Positions 14,270 through 51,798 are shown, counted from the stretch's first letter. The stretch: DNA of 64,000 nucleotides from a virus (IMGVR_UViG_3300046615_000261:32001-96000), one strand, 5' to 3'. Notes: generated by a model not told the origin, from the letters alone. Numbers and translations: made by a program.

Positions 14270-14275
14270 TATTTA
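14270..14275 (-). promoter_or_regulatory. Late promoter box TAAATA
   Basis: Overlaps the TAA stop of the 1601-aa gene; 30 nt before ATG 14239. Confidence 0.6.
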
Positions 14276-25000: not shown

Positions 25001-27979
25001 GTACGTTCTGTGCTGAGCATTGATCCCAGTGTACAGACGGTTCTCAACTTCAAGGAGAACGCCGTTCAGCAGGATCGCTGGATCGAGAGCGACCCATGGT
25101 GCAAGCAGATTCGACTCTGGCTGCCACAGAGCGCCGTCCCAGACGTTCAGCTCGTTCGTTGCACGATTGTACCAGTGTTGACCAACTGCCGAAGCAACTG
25201 GAGCGATCATACCGTCGCTCAGAACGTTGAACGCACGGAGCTCATTGCCGTTCGCTGCTGGGTAAATCCAGAGCTCACCACGGTGCGGTGCCGTTGGAGG
25301 AACAGTCGTGAATGAACCAACGGCTGGAGTGAACGTGCCATCTGCGCGTTTGATCAGCATTCCTGGCGACAGCATACGGTCACGGAATTCTTGCGTGAAT
25401 CGGTAGATCGGCGACAGGTGACCGTCATGGTGACGGAAGAGTTCAGTGCCGAGCTCGTTGTCGAACACGACGCCTGGCTTGACCAGTGGAGTCACGCCAA
25501 GCATTGGGAGCGTAGCTGGGAAACCGATCACTGGTGATGTGCTGTCGAACAGAACAGTGCGGACATCATTGTCCTTTGCACGAACGGAGAGCAGGTAGTC
25601 AGCGAGCTTTGAAGGCGAAGTCAGAACACCTTCATTACCGAAGAACTGCACGAGCTCCTTCAGGTAAAGATCAACAACCGAGTTCAGAGCCGATTCGTAC
25701 TTGCGCTGAGCGAAGTCAACGATCGACAGTGGTGTGTTGTCACGCTGCATCAGCAGAGCGGCAAGCAGATTTTGTTGCTCGGACCAGAGCTTGATCGAAC
25801 CACCGAACGCGTTGTCCTGGGTCTGACCGATCTGATTCACGAGGATACCACGGAAGTGGCTGTACAGCGTACCTTCTGGGATTGCATCGCCATTATCCGC
25901 AGCGACGTTGTTGTACAACATCCGCGGAATCTGCCATGCACCAATGCCTGCTGCGTCACCATTCGCACCTTCGAACAGGTCATAGATCTGTTCGTCAGTA
26001 TCACGGTAAACGTACCGAGCGCTCTCGAAATTACCAACCGCAAATTGGAACTTGTCGCCAGTCTTGAATGGAATCGAACCAGACAGGATCATCGCGGAGA
26101 ACAGACCATTGCTGTACGGTGTGTTCACGCCGATCGTAGAAAGATTGTCAGGCAAGCTCTTCATCTTCGAGCCAGTCACAGAGAACGTGGTCGCGCTCGT
26201 TGCTTCGAGCGTCCAGATCTGCTGCGCGCTGAATGGATCAATCACTTGAACATCGAACAGACCATTCCCGTCGCCAGTGAATGACTGAGAAGTGATCTCG
26301 GCGGACGAGTGGCCTGGATGCCAGATCGAGTGCAGTGCACCGTCGATCGTCTTGTAGAACAGGAGATTGTTTCCTTCTTCGATCAGACCGTGTCCGAACA
26401 AGAAGTCAGAGGATGCGTTCGAGGCATGAGCGACGCGGCGCTGCAGAGCAGGATCGATATCAGCCGTTGGGTCTTCCATGTAGAAGAAGATTGGCGACAC
26501 GAGCGATGCATGCGAACCATCGTACCGGTACAAGTCGAACTGTGGAGCCTGATTGAAATCAGTCTTCTGTTGTTCGTACTCAGTGCCACCGACATCAGTT
26601 GGCGTACCCACTGCTTCAGCGTGCGGCTGAGTTGGAGCGGCCATGCGACCAACGATACCCGAGTTCTCAATGAAGAACCGAGTGTTCAGCTTCAGGTTCG
26701 AGTTGTACTCAATGATCGGACGCGTAGCTTGGATGATCTTCGACAGATCGAGACCAGCGGCAGTCGCTTCATCACGGTGCATCCAGAAGTTCGACTCTTG
26801 CCAGTCGTTCGTGTTCGACACAGAGGTCGAGCCGTCAGCGACCCAGATGCCGGATGCTTGCGCAACGTACAGAGTTTCACGATTACGATCAAAAACGCGC
26901 GCACCATCAGTTGTGCTTGGGTAATCAGCAGCGCGAACGAACGCACCTGGTTTCACAACATAAATGCCGTTATCGACAGAGGCGCCTTGGTTCTTTACAA
27001 GGATACGATCGTTCTCTTTGATCTGAACGCCATCAATCACTTGGTACAGATCGAGCGAGTCGACTGCATTGATCTTGCCCTTCACACCCGGGCCGACGTT
27101 CGGCGTCACACCGTACGTGCTCGACAGGAATGGGGCTGCGATCGTGAAGCTATCGCCAGCAGCGAAGCTTTCGTTACCGATCCAAACACCGTCACCGTCA
27201 TAGATTGGATCGCGAATGATCTTGAACGTCAGGAGAGCTTCACCAGCGCCAGACGCCATGAAGTTCACGGTGTACGTCGAGGATTGCTCAGCTACGATCG
27301 TTGGGAGAGTGTATGACTGAACGATTTCGTCTGGAGCCAGGCCAGCACCCGAAGCCGTCACAGTGAAGTGTGTGCTGTCAGAGAAAGCGACGACCCACGA
27401 CTGTGCGTAGAAACCAGTGCCAGTCAGAACGATCGCGCGTGTCGTTCCTGCAACAACGTTCAGCTTGTCGAGATCGGTCGCCTTTGGGGCCGAGATCGTG
27501 TAGTATTCTGGCGCGAGCGATGGATTCCATGCGAGCGCTGGCGTATTAGGCAGCGACTTCGCGACCCAGTAGTAGTTGAAGAAGTTCGTGAACCGATCGA
27601 AGTTGATCGGTGGCGCGTAGTTGTTCCCTTGGGAGTACAACCACGAGGACTGATCTTCCGAGATCCCAAGGACTTCAGCCTTGCGGATCAGATCCTGTGC
27701 AGTGAACGAGTACGTCTCATTTCCGACCTTGAACGAGAACACAGGCACAAGGGCGTTCACGTCACGCTCTGGATTCGACTGCGGAACCTTTGGGGTACGG
27801 TCGTCTGGGGCCGATGGCTTGCGACCAACGTAACCGTACAGAGGTACCGCTTCATCCTTCGTCAGGAAGCGATTGAACAGATTATCAATCAGCGACGTGA
27901 TCATCGGGTTCCGAAGGTTCTTCGGAACGAGATTCGTCATATCCTGGAAGGGGAGGGAGTAGTCTTTCATGAGCTTCAT
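19097..27979 (-). CDS. Giant baseplate wedge-type virion protein (2960 aa)
   Basis: Uninterrupted ORF in the baseplate cluster with a late box; wedge-like motifs (NFDRFTNFFNYYW, QFNFWRGLIQMKGT, YYFWVKN). Confidence 0.75.
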   Translation of the reverse strand: MKLMKDYSLPFQDMTNLVPKNLRNPMITSLIDNLFNRFLTKDEAVPLYGYVGRKPSAPDDRTPKVPQSNPERDVNALVPVFSFKVGNETYSFTAQDLIRKAEVLGISEDQSSWLYSQGNNYAPPINFDRFTNFFNYYWVAKSLPNTPALAWNPSLAPEYYTISAPKATDLDKLNVVAGTTRAIVLTGTGFYAQSWVVAFSDSTHFTVTASGAGLAPDEIVQSYTLPTIVAEQSSTYTVNFMASGAGEALLTFKIIRDPIYDGDGVWIGNESFAAGDSFTIAAPFLSSTYGVTPNVGPGVKGKINAVDSLDLYQVIDGVQIKENDRILVKNQGASVDNGIYVVKPGAFVRAADYPSTTDGARVFDRNRETLYVAQASGIWVADGSTSVSNTNDWQESNFWMHRDEATAAGLDLSKIIQATRPIIEYNSNLKLNTRFFIENSGIVGRMAAPTQPHAEAVGTPTDVGGTEYEQQKTDFNQAPQFDLYRYDGSHASLVSPIFFYMEDPTADIDPALQRRVAHASNASSDFLFGHGLIEEGNNLLFYKTIDGALHSIWHPGHSSAEITSQSFTGDGNGLFDVQVIDPFSAQQIWTLEATSATTFSVTGSKMKSLPDNLSTIGVNTPYSNGLFSAMILSGSIPFKTGDKFQFAVGNFESARYVYRDTDEQIYDLFEGANGDAAGIGAWQIPRMLYNNVAADNGDAIPEGTLYSHFRGILVNQIGQTQDNAFGGSIKLWSEQQNLLAALLMQRDNTPLSIVDFAQRKYESALNSVVDLYLKELVQFFGNEGVLTSPSKLADYLLSVRAKDNDVRTVLFDSTSPVIGFPATLPMLGVTPLVKPGVVFDNELGTELFRHHDGHLSPIYRFTQEFRDRMLSPGMLIKRADGTFTPAVGSFTTVPPTAPHRGELWIYPAANGNELRAFNVLSDGMIAPVASAVGQHWYNRATNELNVWDGALWQPESNLLAPWVALDPAILLNGVLLEVENRLYTGINAQHRTYFNEQEVQTALTGPLKDELQRELASWAAANKYDPTAPNYVSTDAFTWNYSSLGMPARWFDALKAHQASIAGVIPTSRPNLEPWKLLGFAVKPTDWNTLYKANVTQAMVQNPSLGYIGVTAKAVLWSEAPTGTPLNGLPTVDGKNLLNGDVLLLASEAAASNNGLWIVSSGAWSRAATPLVAKTVVTIGTGQQFSGTQWVLMQDVNSPFEDVLFEQVRSWKLSMWNDIKAARPGLKLSVNTVNDALLSPYVNASSPQAANALTNSLPLSPADPYLFGEGSPVETVWLRSIEFRYALTRALFRKDPMAWLGHCWGFEWVEVDGILYDGFDIAVPGHPRFRLQGDAIRSVARKTPFTMSSLSGPKAIDLTIKHSGYAEGRKFSFTVRAKDGTVIGYVNEGELGTITGAGYTLNDVLIEDEGKPFRIGDTFNITANADGSGLLVTFDQASYAQFHGFGQIFTQALRGSSVDTAQGYAIQAYRGWDVNLGYRAGGLVSTDDLRVFTDVDAIPESAYELRFKRSPFARDIWVQGLRITVVQLGSALPENTTPAGRVPSNAGQDWIFRVEGYNPRFLGIEYFTFTSGDEVTFKALSSAHTDRTWTQPTKIAGTTSTQLPLTITGLQNVVDFLFGYSQKLEADGWRFQDEEGGNTDKATGRIRNWQLEIEKFVDAVYTGIQLNQGHVLVPFMDKLWVEQDVGLLSQYFDTALFDVRANPGVFDVLGAKMNTDDLTILRSRGKSMISAKVPMFSVHAQVDEYEHLFVFSNLMSPSTGEGLIYDPFSGARIVTIKLNGRRQGSNSLRPEFGGHYLVGNEVKRNLQSSADKIAQYYDPDHAFEDELSTRHALALLGFTPKQYMADLDLTDRSQFNFWRGLIQMKGTNASIDAFLNNDRFQDAKLDEYWAYKVAEYGDSRSKIFPELRLSVDDTLTQFTKLIFDPVSIPTDFNAFTVIDSTDENRWFSIDDLNTDVHFNAQVVGTFTKVVQAGDLIKLPFIADELTTAGIAADRVNMTTLIASEDGEITVTGYGPATPKFNPVKLFNYVAAELIEEIPVWHPAYDQHTPVALESVNIISTLDPARYNVSTQVVGNNNYDPLHMWGAKEVGRVWWDTTNLDYVPYYDTMIFQTVDERLSRWGTMTDFATMDVVEWVESNVPPAEYNAQALIDAGNADLDVRTKADGQVYGAKTYSRERVWNTRAIAWSKAGVAIEAAHPSFNSSFQSNLTFTNDGLIMLESGTFAQYGITGGMRVGAWQEDETVLRPLSEYNVIGEFTKFVSYEGDLFTPVVHSLDTLQAVVDLSVLEHTEAVGELLFTAEPVVESLVPASNGAQTVYTHLQAVPASTWTIVHDMGSTAVQVSLYDGMNQVVLPDEITVVDLNTVIVTFSSNTDGHAIVLTGSTGSDWDVSTYLRVMEVDSGQTDHILIRKDRGVDPSNADSPLHFATFDAVAGEQYTFEVPSFGLQITVKVLNSGTFPSDLLVRLIAEALAGSVKLNDAAKVELVVPMVENDLVMDGSTLSNDPTDPLYTLNNGVGWRAWAVPTQAQLDADARVPNSSWFPYVGPWYAFPSAPVNIVQDAASTTPYMLNDGTQIDRYKTTWAAWSELKSTMTHEVATSTGQMVFTLPAGVTNDRVSVYVNGVSQLSGTYKLVGRTLTVLSVQSGSEVVLIVRAVNPSAADLAFDPAIADNLLIQRQYKLDYQYVAVPIRNENGQISTTKYYFWVKNRSTAAHGKNLSVKAVSQLLINGPSNYLTFQHISNSAPFFYDAITISGLSYIVTKDDAFKLRFTRNFTLRDDPNQLDLKNTHVEWSLIRPGQRTKVPEVLWQKMVNTACGKDSAGSTIPSARRVSYDERNGTRTQFGFGSDQVLAPTEMVRGTLLFTILNTKLVDDSGQIPIPDYMNFLDFNGSDTWFETVESTRGTLTRIWNEGKVSQINELFFAVLEDICAANYEMTDVFKTSRLSAYSIKVVRPSPIAPAYE

Positions 27980-29754: not shown

Positions 29755-29820
29755 GCGACACCGAATCTGATCGGTGTTTAGCTAAACAAAAGAGGGACCC
29801 TAGGGTCCCTCGGCTGTTTC
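29751..29820. terminator. About 70-bp repeated element with bidirectional terminator
   Basis: Perfect 20-bp palindrome GAGGGACCCTAGGGTCCCTC (29792-29811) between convergent genes; inverted near-copy at 57743-57821. Confidence 0.8.
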
Positions 29821-29833
29821 TGGTGTCGCCGTC

Positions 29834-31129
29834 CTACTTCCGAACGTACTTGAAGATTGCGTGCCTTCCGTTCTTCTCGACCTCGCCAGACTTGTAGTCG
29901 TCACCCAGAATCTGATCGGCGATCCGCTTGTAGATTCGAGCACGTGAGTTCTTCGTGTCAAGCTTCGCCAGAAAGCTGATGATCTTTGGCTTGCGCTCAC
30001 GAACGAATTGTTCGAACGCCTTCTTGACCATCGCACCGACTTCGAACTCATTCCCAGATCCGGTCTTGCTGGTTGTTTCCCAAGTACCGTTGTCTTCGAC
30101 GAACTCAACGTCCCACTCAGAGAGCGAGTAATCCAGAGCTGCGGCCTTGAAAATGATTGAGCGATCGCCAATCTTAGCTCTCGCTCGGAAAACGTTCTCT
30201 GCGTCTGTGACGACTTTGAAATCAACCGCAGTATCAAGAGCCTCGTTCATCTTCCGAACGTACCTGTACACATGGTGCGTGCTAACTTCCTCTTTTTGTT
30301 CAGTGTACTTGTCGCCAAGGACTCGCTTCGCCATCCGCTGGTAGATCTTTGTGCGAGCGTTCTTCTGATCGAGCTTCGCTGAGAACTCAACCGCTTCTGG
30401 CTTACGGGTCTGAATGAACTCGGTGAATGCTTTCTTGATCAGCGAACCGACTTCAAGCTCCCCACCTGAACCAGTCGCTTCAGTGCTCCACTCACCGTCT
30501 TCCGTGACTTCATAGAAGTCCGTGTTCCAGAGCTGTGGCTTTGCTGCAGGCATCTCGCATTCAGCGGCAAAGATCACACGGCGACCGCCGATCTCGGCTT
30601 CAACAACGAACAGATAAGGCTTGTCAGTCGTGACCTTGTAGTTCACCTCAGTGTCGAGCAGTTCAGCGATCTTCTTTGGCTTGTCCTTCGTGACCGTGAA
30701 TACGACAGCATCATCCGGCACCCATCCACCAGAGTCGCTATTGCCGTTATCGTCGTTCATGATCGAGTACGTGTACCCTGGTGGCGTGAATCGCTTCACC
30801 ATCCGCGTGTAAGTAGCAACACGGCCTCGATCAGAGTGCTTCGCTGTGAACTCAATGTACTTCACGTTCCGCGACTTCACGAACGCCAGGGCAATCTCTT
30901 TGATCGTGCCCATCACTTCGAATTCACCACCAGAGCCGGTCATCTTTGTAGTCGCGCCCTTCTTTCCCTGCTCAATGAAATCAGCGTTCCAGTAGCCAAC
31001 TGTGCCACCTTCACCTGCTGAAAATCTAATGTCACGACCATTGCTGGAGAACACGGCCTCGAACTCGTCTGTCTCGTCAACAGTGATTTCGTAATTCTGA
31101 GTCTTGTTGAATAGTTCAAGCAGCTTCAT
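29834..31129 (-). CDS. Triple-repeat GNAT-like protein, MKLLELF leader
   Basis: Three copies of W..DF..TGSG(G/N)E.EV...F.A...R..Y.R; linkers KKIAELLD and RKMNEALD. Confidence 0.7.
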   Translation of the reverse strand: MKLLELFNKTQNYEITVDETDEFEAVFSSNGRDIRFSAGEGGTVGYWNADFIEQGKKGATTKMTGSGGEFEVMGTIKEIALAFVKSRNVKYIEFTAKHSDRGRVATYTRMVKRFTPPGYTYSIMNDDNGNSDSGGWVPDDAVVFTVTKDKPKKIAELLDTEVNYKVTTDKPYLFVVEAEIGGRRVIFAAECEMPAAKPQLWNTDFYEVTEDGEWSTEATGSGGELEVGSLIKKAFTEFIQTRKPEAVEFSAKLDQKNARTKIYQRMAKRVLGDKYTEQKEEVSTHHVYRYVRKMNEALDTAVDFKVVTDAENVFRARAKIGDRSIIFKAAALDYSLSEWDVEFVEDNGTWETTSKTGSGNEFEVGAMVKKAFEQFVRERKPKIISFLAKLDTKNSRARIYKRIADQILGDDYKSGEVEKNGRHAIFKYVRK

Positions 31130-31611
31130 ACTTCAAGGCCCTTCTTCACGAATGCAAAGTCAGTTGAGAAAACGTAATCGCCGCCGTTCGCATATTTCTT
31201 AGGACCTTCGAAAGCGTCGTACTCAGTGAATAGTTTCTTAGCAAGCTTGCGGTACACTGAGGCACGATTGTCTTTCTTGTTCTCGTCCTTATCAGCCGCG
31301 AATCTGACCACATCTGGGTCGTATTTCTCAAGGAACTTCTTGGTCATGCTAGCGACAAAAGAAAGAACCTGCATCTCGCCGCCCTTGCCTGTCTTGTCGT
31401 AATACCGGTCATGCTCATCTTCTTCAGAGAATGTGAGAACCCAGTACGGACCGCCTGGGCCGATCTTGTGATGATTGTACAAACCTAACTTGTATTCAGC
31501 AAGGAAATGGAATGCGCGATCATCGATGATAGCTCTGGCTTCAAAGGTCCTTGAATTATTTTCAAGGATTTCGTACTCGACCGAGCGGTCCATCAATTCA
31601 TTCAGTTTCAT
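31126..31611 (-). CDS. GNAT-like paralogue, MKLNELM leader
   Basis: KTGKGGEMQVLSF...RFAAD...NRASVYRKL. Confidence 0.7.
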   Translation of the reverse strand: MKLNELMDRSVEYEILENNSRTFEARAIIDDRAFHFLAEYKLGLYNHHKIGPGGPYWVLTFSEEDEHDRYYDKTGKGGEMQVLSFVASMTKKFLEKYDPDVVRFAADKDENKKDNRASVYRKLAKKLFTEYDAFEGPKKYANGGDYVFSTDFAFVKKGLEV

Positions 31612-32080
31612 TTTTCTTCAGATAGTGTCGGATTTCTGAATTGCTGTACCCGAGAAGTTTGCCAACCTTCGCGTCTGGATGATCCGCCGCGGTGCTGTTC
31701 TGATAGATCTTCGCGAGTTGCCGGCCACGCCATTCCTCTCCAGGCAGCGTAATAAAGTATGTAGAGGTCACGCCGTTCTCAGTAGCGTCTCCCCACTCCT
31801 TGTCGACCTTCTTGACCAGAACAAGCTTACCAGACTGAACGTGCTTCTCGAACGCCGCGTACTCATCATTGTCGAGCACAGCCGCTGGCTTCAAACCACG
31901 GAGCATCAAGTTCAGGTGCTTACCTTCGTGCGGGCCGATCTTGCTGTTATCTGGATCGGCTTTTCGCTTGGTCTCCAGCCAGTCAATGAATTCTGGAGAT
32001 GCATCATCGTCGTACGGAACATCGGTGATCTTGTGCACATCGTGACCAAACTTCGCTTCGAACAGTTCAATTAGCTTCAC
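31598..32080 (-). CDS. Unknown-domain protein, MKLIELFEA leader
   Basis: Leader shared with neighbours but different body (LRGLKPAA, GKLLGY). Confidence 0.7.
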   Translation of the reverse strand: MKLIELFEAKFGHDVHKITDVPYDDDASPEFIDWLETKRKADPDNSKIGPHEGKHLNLMLRGLKPAAVLDNDEYAAFEKHVQSGKLVLVKKVDKEWGDATENGVTSTYFITLPGEEWRGRQLAKIYQNSTAADHPDAKVGKLLGYSNSEIRHYLKKNETE

Positions 32081-32604
32081 AGATCTTTCCTAACCATGTA
32101 CAGAAGTTCGTCCTTCTGATCGTGCTCTTGGCGGCTCTTCATCAATGAAGCGACCTCTGGTGATTTCTTCGCCAGATGCACGCCATCCTCGTACTCACTG
32201 GTGCGAGAGAACTTCTTGATCAGCGATTTGTAGAATGATGTTCGGCTGCTTTCAGTCTTACGTGAGCTGAACGAGATAACAGCTGGACGTTCCTTGGCAG
32301 CGAACTCCTCCATGACCTTGATGACTGTCGAGAAGATCTTCAGCGCGTCGCCACCGTTCGTGATTGCGTACGCTGTTTCACCCGTCTCTTTGTCGACCCG
32401 AGAGAACATCACCTCAGCCACAGAGAACGAGTCGTCGCTCATGTAATCTTGTTCGTCTTCGTCCTCGAGCTTAACGTACGTCATCGCGAACTCTACGTGA
32501 ATCTGGTCACCATCCTCGATCGTGAATCTGGTTTCAGCGCCTTGGCTTCCCCAATAATCAAGCTCGAACTCGTAGCATGAGTTCAGGAGTTCATTCAGCT
32601 TCAT
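32077..32604 (-). CDS. GNAT-like paralogue, MKLNELL leader
   Basis: Start corrected to ATG 32604; TNGGDALKIF...SFSS...SRTSFYKSL. Confidence 0.7.
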   Translation of the reverse strand: MKLNELLNSCYEFELDYWGSQGAETRFTIEDGDQIHVEFAMTYVKLEDEDEQDYMSDDSFSVAEVMFSRVDKETGETAYAITNGGDALKIFSTVIKVMEEFAAKERPAVISFSSRKTESSRTSFYKSLIKKFSRTSEYEDGVHLAKKSPEVASLMKSRQEHDQKDELLYMVRKDL

Positions 32605-33076
32605 TTGAGTCCTTCTTCGTGTACGTGAAGTACGAGTACTCACCATCACTGCTCATGTTCACGGACAACGCGTAATCTTTGAACAGCCGTGTACCAAGCT
32701 TCTTGTACAAGTCGGCACGATTATCTTTGCTTCCTTCTTTTTCTGCACCGAAGCGGATCATGTCTGGATTGAACTTCGCGAGAGTTTTCTTGATCATAGA
32801 CGAGATGAACGAAAGAACCTGCATTTCACCACCGTTTCCGGTCTTGTCATACACACGACGCGGGTAAATCTCGCCATCAGCTCGCGTTGACATCCTCAGT
32901 TCACTGAACTCAATGTACACGTACGGATGGCCACCGCTTTCTTCACCAGCGCTATGGACAGCTGCAGAGAACAGGATCTCTCGATTCTCGATCACGGCCT
33001 TCACCATGAATGTTTTATCGGTGTCGCGTTCAATCGTGTACTTGATCTCACGGTCCATCAATTCTTGAAGCTTCAT
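32591..33076 (-). CDS. GNAT-like paralogue, MKLQELM leader
   Basis: KTGNGGEMQVLSF...RFGAEK...NRADLYKKL. Confidence 0.7.
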   Translation of the reverse strand: MKLQELMDREIKYTIERDTDKTFMVKAVIENREILFSAAVHSAGEESGGHPYVYIEFSELRMSTRADGEIYPRRVYDKTGNGGEMQVLSFISSMIKKTLAKFNPDMIRFGAEKEGSKDNRADLYKKLGTRLFKDYALSVNMSSDGEYSYFTYTKKDSNEAE

Positions 33077-36000
33077 CAGCGCACCTGACGGATGATCGTT
33101 GGGGTCAGAGCTTCGACGATTTCGATGTCAGTCAACTGAGCAGCTGATTGCAGGATTTCATCGAAGCCGCACTCGACCGTGAACATGTCACCGAACGAGT
33201 TCGTGCTGTACAACGGAACGAGAACAACCGAAGCGATCTCAGATGGCAGACGCTGGTGCATCAGAGCGATCAGCTCAGTCACATAGAACGTTTCACCGAA
33301 ATCCCAGTTCGAGATGTCGAAGTACGTGTTCATCGTGTTCAGCAGCTCTTCCTTGATGCGCTCGTTCGTGAGTGTCGCACCTGGAGCACGGACAACCTTG
33401 AACTTCGCGCGGAACTGAGGCTCAGCCAAAGAACCGAACAGCAGACGGAGCTTGCCAGGGTGGAGCACGATCGTGTCAGAGAGCATCTTGTTCTTCAACA
33501 GGTACCCATATGCCGAGCGCAGATCCAGTGGAGTTGGAGCAACTGGAGCTGAAGTCGTCAGACCACGGAGGAAGCTGATCACCGAGTCGTAGTAGCCCTG
33601 TGTCAGGACGTACGCATCATGAATGTTCGTGACCGAAGGATCGATGATGTTCGTGCTTGGTGCAAAGTGCTGCCACATGAAGTCCAGACCGGAGTCAGCT
33701 TGAGCTGCTTCGATCGAAGGCATGCGTTGACGACGGCCGAAGACCATGTCAACATCAACGAACGCCCCAGGCAGGTACGTTGCGTTCTTCGCGTCAGCGT
33801 ACTTCAGCGCATCATCGATTGGATCGAGGAGCGCTGTAGGAATTGCGAGCTCGAAGTACTCGTACGAGTCGTTCGAGAACGTTTCGTACTGGAGCAGACG
33901 GTCAGGAACCAAGTCACCAGACGAGTCTTCTTGAAGCAAATCAGTTGGAACAACTTGAAGCTTGTGGAAGTCAATAAGGCCTTCACCGCTCTTCACAGCG
34001 CCAACAACGTCGTACACTTGGCTCTTGCCGAGTGGAGCACCAGTGCTGTCCAGATTTGAGCGCAAGATCTTGATGTTATCAAATACGCGCTTCTTCGTGT
34101 CTTGGTCAAGGATCTGATCGACCTCATTGAACCAGAACTTCGTGGAAGGCGATTGGATCGTGAGCTTCAGATCGCGGTGATGGACTTCGTAGCCGATCAC
34201 GTTGTTCGTTGGTTGTTGACGAATCTTACGAACGAACACGAGCCAGCTGTGTTGCTTCATGGCAACGCTGTCGTCCATCGTGAACAGCAGTTCGTCACCG
34301 TTGATAACTTGACCGCCAGAGTAATGTGGAAGCTGCGAGTAGCCGAGGATTTCCCACCAACCGTTCAGATTGATCGCACCTGGAGTAGACGACACACCAT
34401 TGTTCCGGTAAGCGCCGCCATGCGAGGATGTCGAGCGTCCAACTGGCGCGCCAGAGACACCAGTGTCGAGAACGAATGCGTCACCTGGTTCGAACAGAAT
34501 CGAGCTCTGCGTAATCAGGAAGAACGGCACTGGAGTCTGATAACCAGTTGGAGTGATGTCGTACGTCGTACCGACCGAGCCCGTTGGGAACGTGCCGCGC
34601 AGATTCGAACGAACATTCAGCGTCTGACCGTCAGCAGCAACTTCAATCGTCCAGACTTCACCTTGCACAGCGCCCTGTGGGCGGTTCAAGATCGTGATTG
34701 TACCCGAACCGATACCCGTCACATAACGATTGTACCGAAGCGCGAAGTAATCCTGCTCAGCGATTGGCTGCAGACCGGAACCGATGTCGCCTGGTGGGAA
34801 CTTGTTCACGCCGTCGATCGTGCGTGGCACAGCCGCAGCGTAGATACGCGAGTCGTCCTTCGGGAACAGATCTGGATCAGGGATGCGAGCGTAAATCTGC
34901 GAGTTCTGACCTTCAACGTACTCGAGTGGTTCACCGTACCAGTGACGGTCAATCAGACCCTGCATCGCTGTCTTTTCTTTCAGCGAGCCGTCAGCAGTGG
35001 AACCATCAAGAAGCTTCACATAGCCGCCAGTAGGCGCCTTGTAAAGACCAGCACGATTGTCCTCAATGAACGAGCGACGTGGCGAGGACACAACACCTTG
35101 CGTTGCAGGATCCGTAGCCGAGATGTGCAGCATTGCGTTGATCACGCCATTCGACTCGAGCAGAGGCTCGATCACGGAGTCAATCAGCGCTTGGCCAGAC
35201 AGGGACGTCGTCAAAGAGTTCAGACCCAGTTCGTACCGCATCACGAGGTCATCACCGAAGATGTTCACGTTCTCGTACGAGCCGGAAGCGTCGTTCCAGT
35301 CGATGTACTTTGGCTGACCAGCGAACGTGCGATTAACCGCCTTCAGGCGAAGGATCGAAGGATCCTTGAGCATGAATGTGTTCGCATCTTGACCGTTCAC
35401 AATACGGTTCTGAGCGTAGTACGTGCTTGGAGCGGACTGACGAACGTGCTCGATCGATTCCGATGCAGCACCGTTCTGGAGAGTGGTTGTCAGGCTGAAC
35501 GTGACCGAGCAGGACTGGGTGTTCCCAGTGTTCGACACGTACGTGAACGTCATTGGCTCGTTCACGATCTTGTTCTTCTGGATCACGATCGCGCGGTTAG
35601 CGGACGAGCGCATCCAGAAGCGGAACAGACCTTGCGGAGCGTTCACGAAGTCGCCGTCGCCGAACACGATCGCAATTTGATCGTTCTCCATCGTGTCGAC
35701 TTCGTACTTCGAGCGTGTAGAACGATCATCGTTGAAGATCAGGTTCTGCTCGTTCACGGTCGAAACTTGCTTCCAGCGTTCCGAGATGTTCTGCTGTTCG
35801 TCGAGCTTCTGAACCCAGACGTCAGTGTGATTCACGTTGTTCGGCAGGAACTCAACGCGACGATTTGGGAGCTTGTCGGCCAGGGTGTAGTCAATGCGAG
35901 CAAGCATACCCTGCTTCACGTACATCAGGAAGCCGGTGTAGTCAGAGCCGTCGCCAATACCGTCGTTCGCGTACAGCAGCGACAGAGGAGCGGACATGTC

Positions 36001-36675
36001 TGGCTCGCGTTCCAGTGGACCATTCTCATCGACGTCAGCAGGAACAACTTCCATTGGGTAGCTGTCAAGGCCGGTCGAAGCGGTGAATGCGTGCACACCG
36101 TTCGTGAACGACGAGGACTCAGCGTTCAGCGCGTACAGATCCATTACAACGTCACCGACTTGGTACGTCTTCTGTGGTTGGCCGAAACGAGTGCTCAGGA
36201 CGCGATTCGCGACGAGGAAGAATTGTTCCTTCCAGTTCGCGTTGTTCGGGTCATTCCAAACGATTGTCAGACCGGACAGGTCAACACCGCGGGAGTCGAT
36301 CACTCGTTCCGAAGTCTTGATCGAGGTCATCTTCACGAGGCCACGGACTGGGATGTTCCGAGTTGCCTTGTACGAAATGAGCTTCGCGAGACGCAGGATC
36401 GATTGCTTACGCTGCGCGGTCGTGATGAAGTTCTCATGGCTGACCATGTCGACACGGTACGCGAGCTGTTCAGCAACGTACGCGAACATCTCGAGCATGG
36501 CGATCAGTTCAGAGGACTGGATCAGGTCATTGAATACTTCTGCGTAATAGATCCGCAGATAGTCAACGAGCGATTGCTTGATCGTGTTCGCGTCGAACGA
36601 GGTGAAGTTCACCTGTGCGAAAGCTTCGTAGATCTTTTCCCAGCTCTCGGCTGAGTTTGTATTGCGAAATGCCAT
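33076..36675 (-). CDS. gp6: Baseplate wedge subunit, T4 gp6-like
   Basis: FTSFDANTIKQSL.DYL, ENFITTAQRKQSILRLAKLISY, GAASESIEHVR..AP..Y..QNR.V. Confidence 0.85.
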   Translation of the reverse strand: MAFRNTNSAESWEKIYEAFAQVNFTSFDANTIKQSLVDYLRIYYAEVFNDLIQSSELIAMLEMFAYVAEQLAYRVDMVSHENFITTAQRKQSILRLAKLISYKATRNIPVRGLVKMTSIKTSERVIDSRGVDLSGLTIVWNDPNNANWKEQFFLVANRVLSTRFGQPQKTYQVGDVVMDLYALNAESSSFTNGVHAFTASTGLDSYPMEVVPADVDENGPLEREPDMSAPLSLLYANDGIGDGSDYTGFLMYVKQGMLARIDYTLADKLPNRRVEFLPNNVNHTDVWVQKLDEQQNISERWKQVSTVNEQNLIFNDDRSTRSKYEVDTMENDQIAIVFGDGDFVNAPQGLFRFWMRSSANRAIVIQKNKIVNEPMTFTYVSNTGNTQSCSVTFSLTTTLQNGAASESIEHVRQSAPSTYYAQNRIVNGQDANTFMLKDPSILRLKAVNRTFAGQPKYIDWNDASGSYENVNIFGDDLVMRYELGLNSLTTSLSGQALIDSVIEPLLESNGVINAMLHISATDPATQGVVSSPRRSFIEDNRAGLYKAPTGGYVKLLDGSTADGSLKEKTAMQGLIDRHWYGEPLEYVEGQNSQIYARIPDPDLFPKDDSRIYAAAVPRTIDGVNKFPPGDIGSGLQPIAEQDYFALRYNRYVTGIGSGTITILNRPQGAVQGEVWTIEVAADGQTLNVRSNLRGTFPTGSVGTTYDITPTGYQTPVPFFLITQSSILFEPGDAFVLDTGVSGAPVGRSTSSHGGAYRNNGVSSTPGAINLNGWWEILGYSQLPHYSGGQVINGDELLFTMDDSVAMKQHSWLVFVRKIRQQPTNNVIGYEVHHRDLKLTIQSPSTKFWFNEVDQILDQDTKKRVFDNIKILRSNLDSTGAPLGKSQVYDVVGAVKSGEGLIDFHKLQVVPTDLLQEDSSGDLVPDRLLQYETFSNDSYEYFELAIPTALLDPIDDALKYADAKNATYLPGAFVDVDMVFGRRQRMPSIEAAQADSGLDFMWQHFAPSTNIIDPSVTNIHDAYVLTQGYYDSVISFLRGLTTSAPVAPTPLDLRSAYGYLLKNKMLSDTIVLHPGKLRLLFGSLAEPQFRAKFKVVRAPGATLTNERIKEELLNTMNTYFDISNWDFGETFYVTELIALMHQRLPSEIASVVLVPLYSTNSFGDMFTVECGFDEILQSAAQLTDIEIVEALTPTIIRQVR

Positions 36676-36699
36676 GGTTTGTCCGGAACTGAAGTAAGC

Positions 36700-36705
36700 T
36701 ATTTA
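36700..36705 (-). promoter_or_regulatory. Late promoter box TAAATA
   Basis: 24 nt before ATG 36675. Confidence 0.65.
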
Positions 36706-36750
36706 CGTTCTGCTCGGAATGGGTGAATGTAACAGTTTTCCTGGTTCGCG

Positions 36751-36773
36751 CAGGATGCTGTATAATTCACCAT
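36751..36773 (+). promoter_or_regulatory. Early island promoter (island 3)
   Basis: CAGGATGCTGTATAATTCACCAT with consensus TATAAT; 22/23 identical to 4312-4334. Confidence 0.7.
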
Positions 36774-36972
36774 GCACGCAAAACCTGATCTTGACGACTT
36801 CGTTTGGTACGGCCAGCTCGCCCACTGCGCCGGGATCAAGAACACCGAAGCAGACTACTCGGAAGAACGCGCGTCTGTTCACCGTGGGCAAACGGTCCAG
36901 ATGAACGCGCAGTTCGTGGAAGGCGTTATCGCCGACCCCCGGATGGATCTGGACCTGATTAAGGACTTCTGA
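36772..36972 (+). CDS. Hypothetical protein (island 3)
   Basis: ATG 5 nt after the -10 box, possibly leaderless; start uncertain. Confidence 0.55.
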   Translation: MHAKPDLDDFVWYGQLAHCAGIKNTEADYSEERASVHRGQTVQMNAQFVEGVIADPRMDLDLIKDF

Positions 36973-36974
36973 TC

Positions 36975-37217
36975 ATGAGCCGCTTCTTCCTGTTTAAGAT
37001 GAAGGACCTGGAAATCCCGCCGTTCTTCACGGTAGTGACCACCTCTGGTTGCCTGGAACCGCCGCCGATCGACGCGGATGGCGAGGTCGTTCAGGTCGAG
37101 TGCGACGAGAACTCCCTCGCGTTCTGGCTGCTCGGCATCGGCAAAGTCTGGATGTCCGAGAACCCGGAAGAAGGCTGGTACGCGGTCGAGCTCACCCCAA
37201 CCCCCATGGCGAACTAA
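36975..37217 (+). CDS. Hypothetical protein, tandem paralogue A
   Basis: MSRFFLFKMKDLEIPPFFTV... Confidence 0.75.
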   Translation: MSRFFLFKMKDLEIPPFFTVVTTSGCLEPPPIDADGEVVQVECDENSLAFWLLGIGKVWMSENPEEGWYAVELTPTPMAN

Positions 37218-37225
37218 GGATACCT

Positions 37226-37453
37226 ATGAGCCGCTTCTTCCTGTTCAAGACGAAGGACCTGGAGATCCCGCCGTTCTTCACGGTGCTCGATGGTACGCTC
37301 GATCTGGAACCGCCGATCGCCGCGAAGGGCGATATCGTTCACATCGAGTGTGACGAGAGCGCCCTTACGTTCTGGCTGCGCGGTATGCTCTGTAAAGGCA
37401 TCTGGATGGCCGAGAACACTGAAGATGGTTGGTACATCGAGTTGCCAAACTAG
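37226..37453 (+). CDS. Hypothetical protein, tandem paralogue B
   Basis: SD AAGGA, ATG 37226, MSRFFLFKTKDLEIPPFFTV... Confidence 0.75.
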   Translation: MSRFFLFKTKDLEIPPFFTVLDGTLDLEPPIAAKGDIVHIECDESALTFWLRGMLCKGIWMAENTEDGWYIELPN

Positions 37454-38154
37454 ACCAGTCCGAGCTCGCGCTTGAAGCGGAACTGCACGATCGCCCAGTA
37501 GTTCTGCAGGTCTTTGCTGACCTCGCCCTTGACCTTTTCCCATGCAGCTTCTGCATCGGCAAGGGTCTTCCCGGCTTTCTGAGCCGTGTTCGCGAGCATC
37601 TTCTTGTGCGGTGAAAGATCGCTCCGGAACTTGGCATCCTTCTGGACTGGGTAATCCTGCTCGCCGCTGATGTACGGATCCGAGCGCTTCATTGCGCCTT
37701 CGTCCACGGTCACGCGTCGATTCAGCTCGAACAGGATGTACTTCTCGGCACGACCCAGGCCTGTTTCGAACTCACGAACGAGGTATGCATCGGCGAATCG
37801 CTTGACCATTCGTCTGTACAACTTCACGCGCGACTCTTCGGACTTCTTAGCCGAGAATTCCATTCGCTTCGGATTGTGTTCCTTGATCAGTGAACGGAAG
37901 CAATTCAGAACGAACTGGAAAACCTCGACTTCATTGCCGCTTCCAGTAAGATCGGTCTTTACTTTCTGCTCACCATCGGCCCAGACATCATCAGTCAATT
38001 CAGAGAATAGAACTTCCCAAGTGATTCTGTCTTGGTGCGCGACAAATCGAATGACGCGATCGCCGATCTTCTTTTCAATCTCAAACATTCCATGATTGCG
38101 GTCACGAACGGTACCACCGTGATCAGCAGCTTTAAAAAGTTCATTCAGCTTCAT
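37450..38154 (-). CDS. GNAT-like paralogue with extra C-terminal helical domain, MKLNELF leader
   Basis: Start corrected to 38154; TGSGNEVEVF...SRVKLYRRM; then VDEG|AMKR and a second domain. Confidence 0.7.
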   Translation of the reverse strand: MKLNELFKAADHGGTVRDRNHGMFEIEKKIGDRVIRFVAHQDRITWEVLFSELTDDVWADGEQKVKTDLTGSGNEVEVFQFVLNCFRSLIKEHNPKRMEFSAKKSEESRVKLYRRMVKRFADAYLVREFETGLGRAEKYILFELNRRVTVDEGAMKRSDPYISGEQDYPVQKDAKFRSDLSPHKKMLANTAQKAGKTLADAEAAWEKVKGEVSKDLQNYWAIVQFRFKRELGLV

Positions 38155-38615
38155 TTGTCTTTCCTTGTCAGGAGGAATACCGTGGATTCGTACCCAACGC
38201 GGCCTTGCCATGCCTTTTCGACTTCCTGAGTGTCGAAATCATTTGCGAATCGCTTGATCATCCGTTTGTAAAGCTGAACACGTGATTGCTCGGTTTTAAA
38301 CGCACTAAATTCCATGGCCTTTGGATTGAACTTTTGAATGAACTCTCGCATGCACGCCATCACGAACGACATCACTTCAATTTCATTTCCACTACCAGTC
38401 AAGCCGTGATTTGATTTCTCGCCAGACTCGGTTTGCTCAGAGTCTTCGCTGAACGAGATCACGTATCTCACACCCAAATCTTTTTCAACGGTGAACGTGA
38501 TTTCACGGCCGCCAATCTGCTTCGTGACTTCAAAGACAGGGTCATATCCGTTCTTACGATCTACGGCAACTTTACCGCCGTGATCTTCTTTATCAAACAG
38601 CTCATTCAGCTTCAT
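38151..38615 (-). CDS. GNAT-like paralogue, MKLNELF leader
   Basis: TGSGNEIEVMSF...SRVQLYKRM. Confidence 0.7.
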   Translation of the reverse strand: MKLNELFDKEDHGGKVAVDRKNGYDPVFEVTKQIGGREITFTVEKDLGVRYVISFSEDSEQTESGEKSNHGLTGSGNEIEVMSFVMACMREFIQKFNPKAMEFSAFKTEQSRVQLYKRMIKRFANDFDTQEVEKAWQGRVGYESTVFLLTRKDK

Positions 38616-39028
38616 TTGTCTTTCCTTGTCAGCGCGAACAGGTCAAGGCCATGTTCACCATCATCTGGAGACAATTCGTAGTCGCCACCGAATCGCTTCA
38701 CCAAATGGTGGTACACCGTTGATCGCGACTTGTCGCTGAATTCCGACCCAAAGACAATTCGCTCTGGGTTTCGCCGCTTAATGAAGTCGCGCATGCACGC
38801 CACCACGAATGACATCACCTGGATTTCATTCCCGCTACCTGTCATATCGACAGATACCTTATCACCACGCCATTCAGCGAATGAAACTTCCCAATCGTCT
38901 CTGTCGCTACGGTCTGCAGAGAAGGAAATCAGTCGATCACCAATCATCTTCTTCACGTTGAAGTGGTGCTCTGAGTTCTCAACTTCGGCGCCGTGATCAG
39001 CAGATCCAAAAAGCTCATTCAGTTTCAT
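38612..39028 (-). CDS. GNAT-like paralogue, MKLNELF leader
   Basis: TGSGNEIQVMSF...SRSTVYHHL. Confidence 0.7.
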   Translation of the reverse strand: MKLNELFGSADHGAEVENSEHHFNVKKMIGDRLISFSADRSDRDDWEVSFAEWRGDKVSVDMTGSGNEIQVMSFVVACMRDFIKRRNPERIVFGSEFSDKSRSTVYHHLVKRFGGDYELSPDDGEHGLDLFALTRKDK

Positions 39029-39030
39029 GA

Positions 39031-39417
39031 TCAGCCTACGTTGAATTCTAGACGGAGGGTTTCTTTCACATCGAGCTCGACGAACAACAGATCCACGAAC
39101 GCAGCGATTGCATTCAGATCTGGCAGCGCGTTGATCGACATGTCAATCAGACGGACGCGTGGATCATAATCAATGACCTTCGTGAGGTCTTCACGGACGA
39201 TGTCAAGTGTCTTCTGATCGAGCGGTTCGAATGCAAGCAAAGGAATGCGCGTGCCGAAGTTTGGCTGATGCACGCGCTCGCCTGGAATCGTGTACAAGTG
39301 GTTCCACAGATCCTGCTTTACGAGATCCACGCCAGTCAGGCTGAAGCCACGCTTCTTGTTCGACAGGTACGAAGCGGTGCTGAACCCTCGGTACAGTGGT
39401 AGTTTGCTAGCCATCAA
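39031..39417 (-). CDS. gp25: Baseplate wedge subunit gp25-like
   Basis: LWNHLYTIPGERVHQPNFGTRIPLLAFEP. Confidence 0.9.
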   Translation of the reverse strand: MMASKLPLYRGFSTASYLSNKKRGFSLTGVDLVKQDLWNHLYTIPGERVHQPNFGTRIPLLAFEPLDQKTLDIVREDLTKVIDYDPRVRLIDMSINALPDLNAIAAFVDLLFVELDVKETLRLEFNVG

Positions 39418-40532
39418 GCTTTCCAGTTCTTATTCCGCTTGCCCTTCGTGCCAGGGCGAGTCCAAGGTTCATGATTCGGTACAACTGTCGGAGCCGTTGG
39501 ACATTCAGCTGCTGCAGCACCAGGGCCGTTCAAGTGAATGTTCGAAGCAGTCTGAAGCAGATCACCTGAAGCAAGGATGTTGAACGCTGCACCGGAGTCC
39601 AGATTGATCCCTTTACCCGAGATGTTCGTTGCACCACAAGCCGCAAGAAGCATCGCTCCGCCAGCCTGGATATTTACAGCACCACCAACACCGACGTTGA
39701 AGTTCCCTGTTGCGGTGAAGTTGAAGTCTCCACCAGTGCTCATGCTGACCGAGTCGGCCGCGTACATGTGGATCCGACCGTCTTGGTCCATTTCGAAGTA
39801 CGACTTCCCGCGAGCTGTGGAAACGTAGATCCGTTCGTTCGCGTCGTCCAGAATGATCTGATGGCCGGCCGAAGTCTTCACTCGAACTCGGCCTGTCTCC
39901 GGATTGTCCTGGAAGATCAACGAGTGACGCCCAGGTGTTGTCAGAACGTAAGTCTGAGGATCATATTGAGCCGCGCCTTCTTTGTCACTCGGCGTCACCA
40001 GGTCCTTTTGGTACCCTTCAGTTCCATCCTTGTCGGTCTTGTCCTGAGCGACAGCACGTTCGTACACGCCACGGGTCTTGGCTTCGCTGGCATCGAGCTT
40101 ACCGTCGAACTGCGCAGCAAGATTCGATGACTGTGGCTCGACCGGCTCGAACGTGTCCGAGAGCGGCATCTTGTTGATGTCGGCTCGATTGCGGCCCTGC
40201 GGCAGGGAACGATTCCCGTGATCACGGAAGTACGAACCCATGTACATCCGACGATTCGGGTCATTGTACAGGAAGCCGACGATCGCTTGAGCACCAGTCT
40301 TTGGCACAGCCCAGAAACCGTACGACATGAGGCCGGACGTTGTCGTACCTCCAGGCCCTGCTGGATAATCACGAGTCTGACCTGCCATTGGAGAGACGTA
40401 CGTCGCCCACGGCAGATCATCAATGTTGTACATGTCGCCGTCAACTGCTGGAACCCAGATCTTGACACGCCCCATTTGCTGAGGATCGTTCGTGTCAACG
40501 ACGACACCTTCCATGAGCGATGAGAGAATCAT
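39414..40532 (-). CDS. gp5: Baseplate central spike gp5/VgrG-like (OB-fold + beta-helix, no lysozyme domain)
   Basis: GVVVDTNDPQQMGRVKIWVP, VPKTGAQAIVGFL, C-terminal beta-helix repeats. Confidence 0.85.
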   Translation of the reverse strand: MILSSLMEGVVVDTNDPQQMGRVKIWVPAVDGDMYNIDDLPWATYVSPMAGQTRDYPAGPGGTTTSGLMSYGFWAVPKTGAQAIVGFLYNDPNRRMYMGSYFRDHGNRSLPQGRNRADINKMPLSDTFEPVEPQSSNLAAQFDGKLDASEAKTRGVYERAVAQDKTDKDGTEGYQKDLVTPSDKEGAAQYDPQTYVLTTPGRHSLIFQDNPETGRVRVKTSAGHQIILDDANERIYVSTARGKSYFEMDQDGRIHMYAADSVSMSTGGDFNFTATGNFNVGVGGAVNIQAGGAMLLAACGATNISGKGINLDSGAAFNILASGDLLQTASNIHLNGPGAAAAECPTAPTVVPNHEPWTRPGTKGKRNKNWKA

Positions 40533-51021: not shown

Positions 51022-51798
51022 ATGAAACTTGCCGATCTATTCGAGGCAGTCGTCTCCGATTCTGCCCAAGCACTCAAACTTCTTGGTCTCGCATCCGATG
51101 CGTCCATGACCGACGTGAAGGCTTCATACCGCAAGCTTGCGCAAAAGCTTCATCCTGACAAGAATGACGGCAGCGCTGAAGCTACCGAGAAGATGAAGAT
51201 GGTCAATGCGGCGAATGACTTCCTACTGAAGCATGGGTTGTCAAAGGCGACAGCTTCAGCCCAGCCTCCTGCAGAGGATGTGAAGTTCACCAAGGAAGGC
51301 ATCAAAGAGGTCGACGATAAGCTAGAAGTGATTCTTAAGAATCCGGCATGGTTCGACAAGAAGGGCCGCTCAAAGTACATTGGACCAGTTCTTTTTGCAC
51401 GTGAGCGCCTCAAGGTTGCCGAACAGCTGATCGAAATTCTCCCAGCGTACGAAGCTGTCATGAAGAAGATCGTTGCCTCTTGGAAGAATCGTTTCGAGAA
51501 GCCAGAACCTTTCAAGGCTGCAGCGAAGGAATTTGAAGAGTTCTTCAAAGAACATAAGCCAAATGATCTTCAAGCCCTTCTTAATCGCATTGCAAAGAGA
51601 CAGCGCACAGCAGGGTGCACCTACCTTAAGGTGGAAACCCCACTTCGTAACAAGGTCAGCGACGAGCTCAGCGAGATCCTGAGTTCTCGTGAGAAGATCA
51701 AGGAAGCGGTAGTTGCAGTGGACAGAACTCCTGAGCAACGTGAACGTGCTGCGAAGGCTTCTGCTCGAATGAAAGCTCAGTGGGGTTCGACTTTTTAA
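51022..51798 (+). CDS. J-domain (DnaJ-like) protein, MKLADLFEA leader
   Basis: LLGL...DVKASYRKLAQKLHPDKN with intact HPD. Confidence 0.85.
   Translation: MKLADLFEAVVSDSAQALKLLGLASDASMTDVKASYRKLAQKLHPDKNDGSAEATEKMKMVNAANDFLLKHGLSKATASAQPPAEDVKFTKEGIKEVDDKLEVILKNPAWFDKKGRSKYIGPVLFARERLKVAEQLIEILPAYEAVMKKIVASWKNRFEKPEPFKAAAKEFEEFFKEHKPNDLQALLNRIAKRQRTAGCTYLKVETPLRNKVSDELSEILSSREKIKEAVVAVDRTPEQRERAAKASARMKAQWGSTF

Follow-up and report, generated by a model that had tools for sequence, protein, structure and literature searches.

Proteins that are packed into phage particles and injected are known for very few phages, yet they are the first to act in host take-over and counter-defence. The internal proteins of T4 (IPI, IPII and IPIII) are non-essential, are packed through the prohead core and are ejected, and their loci vary between related phages (PMC3012670, PMC9026906). 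They are small, diversified proteins with a short N-terminal targeting and cleavage peptide that ends in L/I-x-E, and L/I-X-E is the site of the gp21 prohead protease (PMC9026906). Another T4 protein, Alt, starts with MELITE-LFD, and gp21 removes its first six residues at ITE-6 (PMC5694885), a cleavage that the annotation of GenBank X15811 records as well. Here, we describe nine copies of one domain, DUF6934, in a 64,000-nucleotide window of the virus record IMGVR_UViG_3300046615_000261 (bases 32001-96000 of a 234,547-bp IMG/VR record that is an estimated 66% complete). Our favored reading, to which we give a probability of roughly 0.55, is that the nine domains make up packaged, protease-trimmed ejection proteins that combine a GNAT-derived domain resembling the N-terminal domain of Alt with an Alt-type propeptide.

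The locus compares with these described systems in different ways. The targeting sequence of the T4 internal proteins is 10 residues long and different in sequence, and their mature parts are unrelated to each other, whereas the nine copies here share one fold. Packaging has been demonstrated for the T4 internal proteins, whereas we infer it for the DUF6934 proteins. Alt is alike in that its N-terminus also reads [LI]-x-E followed by [LV]-F-D, which in T4 is cut after the Glu by gp21, and the Alt N-domain has a similar layout of strands, G-x-G loop, helix, strand, and helix. The alt gene likewise adjoins baseplate genes, a position that PMC5512222 reads as late synthesis for head packaging. 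Unlike Alt, the seven genes described here have no ADP-ribosyltransferase domain, and the Alt N-domains lack the R102/Y106 signature of DUF6934 that is described below.

The DUF6934 domains and their relatives

The domain is about 140 residues long and is encoded nine times in seven minus-strand genes, three times in a single gene of 431 residues and once in each of the other six (Table 1). Nine copies in seven genes had been predicted at these positions from the DNA sequence alone, and all nine were recovered by profile searches. Leave-one-out profiles built from the other eight copies found each copy at E values of 4e-14 to 1e-42, and a profile of 46 proteins taken only from other metagenomes matched all nine (E 7e-21 to 2e-42). 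Pairwise identity among the copies is 14-48%, and they are therefore old paralogues. The shared residue pattern that accompanied the prediction is a schematic description of a real homologous domain; as a literal regular expression it matches nothing because the stretch from W.V.F to TG.G varies by 10-25 residues. A further suggestion, that the N-terminal halves on the presumed substrate side diverge more than the core, was not borne out (mean column identity of 0.31 versus 0.34), and the variable parts of the domain are instead one loop and the C-terminal tail. The likely start codons (MKLNEL...) of two of the genes are at 32604 and 38154 instead of 32649 and 38211. Most copies are acidic (isoelectric points of 4.8-5.9), and a role as basic, DNA-condensing proteins was dropped for that reason. 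A tenth, divergent copy (MILQEILD) lies outside the window next to gp15, at G000:116812-117282, where G000 refers to the virus record as a whole.

Profile matches place the nine domains in a single phage family that is widespread, Pfam DUF6934 / PHROG 16075 and 6387. PHROG 16075 matches all seven genes (E 4e-21 to 3e-4). With Pfam DUF6934 (PF22028), the gene at 32077 reaches 32.4 bits, above the cut-off of 27, and the remaining copies stay below it; the same model matches 28 of 55 aligned relatives and reaches 162 bits in related polyproteins. A profile search of 1.8 billion representative proteins returned 4759 matches at E<=1e-3, 95 of them at E<=1e-30, and 95 of the best 150 matches contain two to six copies of the domain. 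Many relatives are 600-1950 residues long, and in these the DUF6934 domain alternates with other regions. The accompanying domains include GNAT, methyltransferase, amidoligase with GGACT, DUF192, SprT-like peptidase, and ADP-ribosyltransferase domains, and viral structure models that match the fold add fusions to zeta-toxin, deaminase, and ParB domains. In three related polyproteins, the GNAT domains are present as separate, extra domains beside the DUF6934 repeats.

With their fused or alternating enzymes, these relatives are like the injected polyvalent proteins and MuF-domain fusions covered in PMC5512222; the nine copies here differ from those in standing alone or in tandem, with no cargo domain. 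No mention of DUF6934 was found in the searched passages on MuF fusions and polyvalent proteins. A literature search for DUF6934 returned one incidental mention, and no description linking it to the Alt propeptide or the Alt N-domain was found in the literature searched. The family is catalogued but unexplained. Two observations on its relatives may be added. In the KVP40-like phage ValKK3, SprT-like, Alc-like, and Alt-like proteins and a 295-residue protein with an N-terminal DUF6934 domain are neighbors (97500-104500), and in the metagenomic protein P0085 DUF6934 is fused directly to an SprT-like peptidase.

The N-terminal tag and its possible relation to T4 Alt

All seven genes start with M-K-L-x-E-L-[FLM]. 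The same tag is found on three unrelated open reading frames (ORFs) of the genome, namely a 160-residue gene within the array, a DnaJ-domain protein, and a 292-residue ORF. Across 73 relatives, position 3 is Leu or Ile in 70 and position 5 is Glu in 72. The motif is also kept inside proteins: internal repeats in relatives start with [LIVM]-x-E-x-[FL]-[DN] at the same profile positions (94/94), and the repeat boundaries of the three-domain protein retain KIAE-LLD and MNE-ALD. In both structure models, those of the 138-residue copy and of the three-domain protein, the tag is poorly packed. An alignment of eleven divergent Alt N-termini gives the consensus Q-L-N-E-V-F-D, which is essentially the DUF6934 tag. 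A gp21-type prohead protease, the enzyme that cuts this site in T4 Alt, is encoded in the phage itself (Table 1), as it is in T4, ValKK3, PA5oct, RsoM2USA, and XacN1. Together, these comparisons suggest that the tag is a conserved Alt-type propeptide, which points to virion packaging.

The resemblance to Alt may extend beyond the tag. When the DUF6934 profile was aligned by hhalign with a profile of the eleven Alt N-domains, the match had an E value of 5.5e-4 over 120 collinear columns, running from the tag to the second helix, at a probability of only 30%. BFVD models of Alt from the phages phiAS5, CF1, Melville, and HY03 match the fold with E values of 2e-5 to 9e-5, in rows that do not show which part of Alt was aligned. 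The family profile also reaches the N-terminus of the ValKK3 Alt-like protein (E 0.003), as does Pfam DUF6934 (E 0.044). With single Alt sequences in place of the Alt profile, hhalign gave a weak result for ValKK3 (E 0.027) and a meaningless one for T4 (E 0.22). The plain family profile misses T4 Alt, so the link is remote, and these comparisons give the putative homology of DUF6934 to the Alt N-domain no more than moderate support. A homologue search that started from the Alt N-domain returned only near-identical T4-like proteins, and the precomputed Pfam family there is PF26846. The ADP-ribosyltransferase domain of T4 Alt occupies residues 374-614, so the DUF6934 match concerns the uncharacterized N-terminal part of Alt. 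The model for that enzymatic domain, PF03496, matches T4 Alt and the ValKK3 Alt-like protein and has no match in any of the seven genes. T4 itself carries alt.-1/alt.-2 (L022:8066-8451) just downstream of alt. Here the first ∼120 residues of Alt, start MELITELFD included, are duplicated in split form, a small-scale parallel to the stand-alone DUF6934 copies.

Other ORFs of the genome may carry the tag or something like it. Outside the window, the 292-residue ORF (tag MKLLDLFE) is followed by the tenth copy (the two span G000:115937-117282) and then by the gene for the gp15 tail-sheath stabiliser; the 292-residue ORF has no PHROG match and no significant Pfam match. The minus-strand 249-residue ORF at G000:2525-3274, also outside the window, starts with MDVLIHELFEN and is a candidate bearer of an [LI]-x-E-L-F tag. 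A 528-residue Amidoligase_2 protein (G000:118061-119647, outside the window) starts with MISFKQFLAE, which ends in L-A-E. This start resembles MKTYQEFIAE, the targeting sequence of T4 internal proteins, and it may represent another kind of packaging tag that the phage uses. If the tag does mean packaging, the DnaJ protein would be a virion-delivered co-chaperone.

Possible virion presence and genomic position

The PA5oct genome encodes a single family member, YP_010679079, which starts with MHLFELFD and carries the record annotation 'structural protein, ESI-MS/MS'. The PA5oct paper reports 93 virion proteins (PMC7318152). In ValKK3, six copies are located near alt, an SprT-like gene, inh, and the major head gene. 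Family genes directly follow gp25 and gp6 in one uncultured relative and follow gp6 in a second.

In the window, the arrays are directly downstream of gp6 and gp25, as the original prediction had stated. The end of gp25 and the first gene of its array are 2 nt apart, and gp6 shares 1 nt with the gene that opens the other array. Every one of the eight genes in these chains overlaps or abuts its neighbors, gp25 or gp6 among them (by 1-14 nt). As judged from this spacing, the array genes and the baseplate genes form a putative single, translationally coupled chain, and the array proteins would therefore be made together with virion parts. In RsoM2USA, XacN1, PA5oct, and Vibrio phage 2.275.O, gp25, gp6, and a giant protein are directly adjacent, which makes the arrays optional additions to a conserved late module, inserted at two fixed sites. 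The family profile finds no copy in RsoM2USA, XacN1, SCTP-2, or Vibrio phage 2.275.O, although an empty answer of this kind proves little. The status of the arrays as optional insertions argues against an essential role in the baseplate.

The same positions invite a different explanation, namely that the proteins attach close to gp25 and gp6 as accessory tail or baseplate components or as chaperones of assembly, their copy number following baseplate complexity. Translational coupling to gp25 and gp6 would fit this explanation, as would the family genes at the same positions in the two uncultured relatives, the tenth copy adjoining the gp15 tail gene, and the annotation of the PA5oct homologue as a virion protein. 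We nevertheless consider it quite improbable. The closest cultured relatives with the order gp5, gp25, gp6, giant protein have nothing at these sites, and with no copy found in RsoM2USA, XacN1, and Vibrio phage 2.275.O the family does not appear to be needed for this baseplate. In PA5oct and ValKK3 the genes are found away from these sites, in the vicinity of alt, inh, and head genes. The N-terminal tag is the same as a head-protease site, and fusions to toxin and enzyme domains are ill-suited to a structural wedge part.

The virion annotation in PA5oct also bears on a third explanation, in which the proteins stay out of the virion and act late in the cytoplasm, for example as decoys or inhibitors that bind a host defence protein or a phage enzyme in the manner of an antizyme. 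An antizyme-like topology, the diversification and mostly acidic nature of the paralogues, and the presence of the arrays as variable insertions relative to cultured relatives would all be in keeping with such a role. A homologue annotated as detected in virions would not, nor would a conserved Alt-type propeptide that is kept even at internal repeats. Moreover, co-translation with structural genes would be poor timing for counter-defence unless the products were packaged for the next infection. We regard this explanation as very unlikely.

Under the favored reading of packaged ejection proteins, the DUF6934 proteins would first be directed to the core of the prohead. The gp21-type protease of the phage itself would then trim them after the Glu, and it may also cut the three-domain protein into units. 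The trimmed proteins would be retained in the head and ejected with the DNA, and they would then be counterparts to the internal proteins of T4, as well as to Alt's N-terminal domain.

Several points weigh against this reading. The evidence for packaging here consists of the annotation of the PA5oct homologue and a motif. That motif may simply form the initial structural element of the domain, in which case its retention at internal repeats would be explained as well, and it has 5 residues up to the Glu as compared to 10 in the targeting sequence of T4 IPIII. To the low hhalign probability and the unplaced BFVD alignments given above for Alt, it should be added that the plain family profile finds nothing in T4, Moon, Stupor, and GomatiRiver_11, an empty answer that again proves little. 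Mention is made of 'related basic proteins' of T-even phages (PMC9026906), whereas most copies here are acidic. That family genes recur behind gp25 and gp6 could instead indicate a function in the tail or baseplate, and the T4-type late promoter box TATAAATA is absent from all 64 kb of the window. Lastly, R102 and Y106 are present in 97-100% of ∼300 copies of the domain, a level of conservation more in keeping with an active site than with a passive carrier.

A broader and more tentative proposal, which we think has perhaps some merit but is not the expected outcome, is that DUF6934 and the Alt N-domain are one ancient carrier module by which T4-superfamily phages target proteins to the capsid. 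In this proposal, [LI]-x-E-[LV]-F-D would be both prohead address and protease site, and the polyproteins of 600-1950 residues in which the module alternates with enzyme domains would be cut in the head at every repeat boundary to release effectors that are injected along with the DNA. If so, the set of proteins that thousands of uncultured phages inject could be predicted from the tag and domain together, and the stand-alone copies would represent a GNAT-derived class of internal proteins with a conserved ligand site of its own. Even for the narrower reading, a short, near-invariant tag would offer a rule, open to testing, by which packaged proteins of T4-superfamily and jumbo phages could be recognized, and it would point to a means of loading such heads with foreign cargo. 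The N-terminus of T4 Alt, whose cleavage is experimental fact, has this tag in common with the family, and the tag would hint at a role for the uncharacterized N-terminal third of that protein as well.

Fold of the domain and the acetyltransferase question

The 138-residue copy was modelled with AlphaFold2 using 55 homologues, resulting in a mean predicted local distance difference test (pLDDT) score of 80 and a predicted template modelling (pTM) score of 0.75. In the model, four to five strands and a loop lead into a long helix, after which come a strand, a second helix, and two strands; the first twelve residues are poorly defined. The model of the three-domain protein contains three separate units with no fixed mutual arrangement (pTM 0.43); the first linker is poorly defined, with residues 151-156 below a pLDDT of 50.

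A GNAT-like fold had been proposed for the domain, and structure searches with the model agree with this. The best 50 rows of a VIA-align search are all GNATs (Z 9.5-8.4), led by EctA (6sll_A, Z 9.5, root-mean-square deviation 3.2 Å over 115 residues). A Foldseek search of the PDB returned almost only GNATs, plus ornithine decarboxylase (ODC) antizyme. In the ESM Atlas, template modelling (TM) scores are 0.75-0.78 to clusters of viral hypothetical proteins and 0.61-0.65 to minimal GNATs of 121-129 residues. Among Swiss-Prot models, antizymes rank first, and GNATs align by the C-terminal two thirds only (from approximately residue 45-60); T4 Alt is not among the rows of this search. The modelled fold is that of a minimal GNAT core with two helices, lacking alpha1-alpha2. 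With GNATs it shares the core fold, the order of elements, the glycine loop that precedes the first long helix, and the R...Y helix that follows beta5; it differs from them in having no Pfam GNAT sequence match, no alpha1-alpha2, and no Gln/Arg conserved in motif A.

The beta4-alpha3 loop and the alpha4 helix are the elements that hold coenzyme A (CoA) in GNATs. The TG.G and R..LY segments had been likened to GNAT motifs A and B, and their positions in the model agree with this, with TG.G in the beta4-alpha3 loop and R..LY on alpha4. The comparison does not extend to the Gln/Arg of motif A, which is not conserved: the residue three before the first Gly of motif A is Asp, Lys, Ala, Glu, or Gly. 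Directly ahead of the helix, G64 is present in 49 of 55 members and G66 in all 55. G66, R102, and Y106 are invariant in the 55 relatives, T63, E68, V71, and P88 nearly so, and G66, R102, and Y106 are kept in 93-100% of ∼300 domain copies across all architectures. The three invariant residues occupy the positions at which acyl-CoA is held in GNATs, which makes ligand binding or acyl transfer possible; we put acyl-CoA binding or acyl-transfer activity of the domain at about one chance in three. If the domain does bind acyl-CoA, it would represent a minimal, virion-delivered class of GNATs.

Whether the proteins are active transferases is a separate matter. The original prediction described an acetyltransferase-fold effector family; the fold is supported and an effector role is plausible, whereas acetyltransferase identity is undercut by the missing Pfam GNAT match and the missing alpha1-alpha2. 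In its full form, this explanation holds that the paralogues are acetyl- or acyl-CoA-dependent GNAT transferases, each with a different host target or defence protein, whether packaged or not. In its favor are structure matches almost only to GNATs, a retained beta4-alpha3-beta5-alpha4 cofactor-binding core, and the conservation of the G-x-G loop, R102, and Y106. Phage GNAT effectors also exist, such as Rac of phiKMV-like phages (cited in PMC7824862). However, none of the 55 members matches any Pfam Acetyltransf family, even at E<=1, and a sequence-profile search of the PDB found no GNAT, only designed repeat proteins (E 0.018). The alpha1-alpha2 helices, which form the arm that shapes the acceptor site, are absent, each domain having two long helices in both models. 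Non-catalytic ODC antizymes rank with or above GNATs in the structure searches. The true GNAT domains beside the repeats of three polyproteins would be odd if the repeat itself were an acetyltransferase, and an arrangement of up to six copies per polypeptide, N-terminal to other enzymes, suits a module or carrier better. We therefore consider active transferases to be unlikely, although less so than a cytoplasmic or baseplate role, and packaged virion proteins to be more likely than nine proven acetyltransferases.

By analogy to antizyme and the Alt N-domain, a non-catalytic role in binding or carrying is at least as likely as acyl-CoA chemistry. ODC antizyme has GNAT-derived strands with two helices only, is among the best Foldseek matches in the PDB, and acts by binding a protein, without catalysis. 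Its example indicates that a two-helix GNAT topology can be a pure protein binder. Unlike the phage domain, antizyme is eukaryotic, and the two have no sequence similarity and superpose poorly (TM 0.36, root-mean-square deviation ∼13 Å).

Gene neighborhood

The closest relatives of the gp6-like protein are proteins of Ralstonia phage RsoM2USA (44%), XacN1, Stenotrophomonas, SCTP-2, and PA5oct-like phages, and the genome is therefore that of a jumbo phage, not yet cultured, from the T4 superfamily. The minus-strand genes are arranged in the order 691-residue virion protein, gp5-like spike, gp25, three small genes, gp6, and five small genes, with a strong hairpin after them (Table 1).

Table 1. 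Features of the DUF6934 arrays, their surroundings, and other genes of the window discussed in the text.
Feature	Coordinates	Strand	Remarks
Likely two-way terminator	29792-29811		8-bp G+C-rich hairpin, T-tracts on both strands, 23 nt past the last array gene
Three tandem DUF6934 domains, 431 aa	29834-31129	minus	domains at 30674-31129, 30242-30673, 29837-30241
Single-domain DUF6934 gene, 161 aa	31126-31611	minus	profile match
160-aa gene within the array, not a family member	31598-32080	minus	tag VKLIELFE; external profile E 69
DUF6934 gene, 175 aa, most divergent copy	32077-32604	minus	TNGGDA loop; sole copy above the Pfam DUF6934 gathering score
Single-domain DUF6934 gene, 161 aa	32591-33076	minus	profile match; 1-nt overlap of its start with the gp6 stop
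gp6-like baseplate wedge gene, 1199 aa	33076-36675	minus	phrog_10646, E 1.5e-256; directly upstream of one array
DUF6934 gene, 234 aa	37450-38154	minus	domain at 37705-38154; ∼85-aa C-terminal extension without family match
Single-domain DUF6934 gene, 154 aa	38151-38615	minus	profile match; 4-nt overlap with the preceding gene
Single-domain DUF6934 gene, 138 aa	38612-39028	minus	external profile E 2e-42; first after gp25; starts MKLNELFG
gp25-like baseplate wedge gene	39031-39417	minus	PF04965; directly upstream of the other array
gp5-like spike gene	39414-40532	minus	
DnaJ (J-domain) protein, unrelated	51022-51798	plus	tag MKLADLFEA
T4 gp21-type prohead protease gene (Peptidase_S77)	starts 63922, passes window end; G000:95922-96332	plus	93.5 bits, cut-off 27

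The 160-residue array gene has no PHROG match and no significant Pfam match, and its ESM Atlas matches are clusters of viral hypothetical proteins only. The C-terminal extension of the 234-residue protein has no PHROG match. Scans of the window for sigma-70 promoters and terminators were at chance level, except for the hairpin at 29792-29811. A megablast search of the region against 50,697 phage records gave no match.

The gp25-side array contains a junction repeat, 38107-38171 and 38568-38632, that is 82% identical over 65 nt and terminates in an identical 31-mer spanning the stop/start and the MKLNEL codons. The gene bodies of this array are ∼48% identical as protein, and the DNA at the junctions is far more alike. 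This pattern suggests that gene conversion or recombination may have occurred at the junctions.

Between gp6 and the gp25-side array, and antisense to them, are a 66-residue ORF (36772-36972, plus strand) and two plus-strand paralogues of 80 and 75 residues (36975-37217 and 37226-37453). The paralogues both start with MSRFFLFK and are 95% identical over their first 59 nt; none of these three ORFs has a PHROG match. Downstream of the array on the minus strand are two giant ORFs, 19097-27979 (2960 residues) and 14273-19078 (1601 residues, without a PHROG match), and similar giant virion proteins follow gp6 in relatives.

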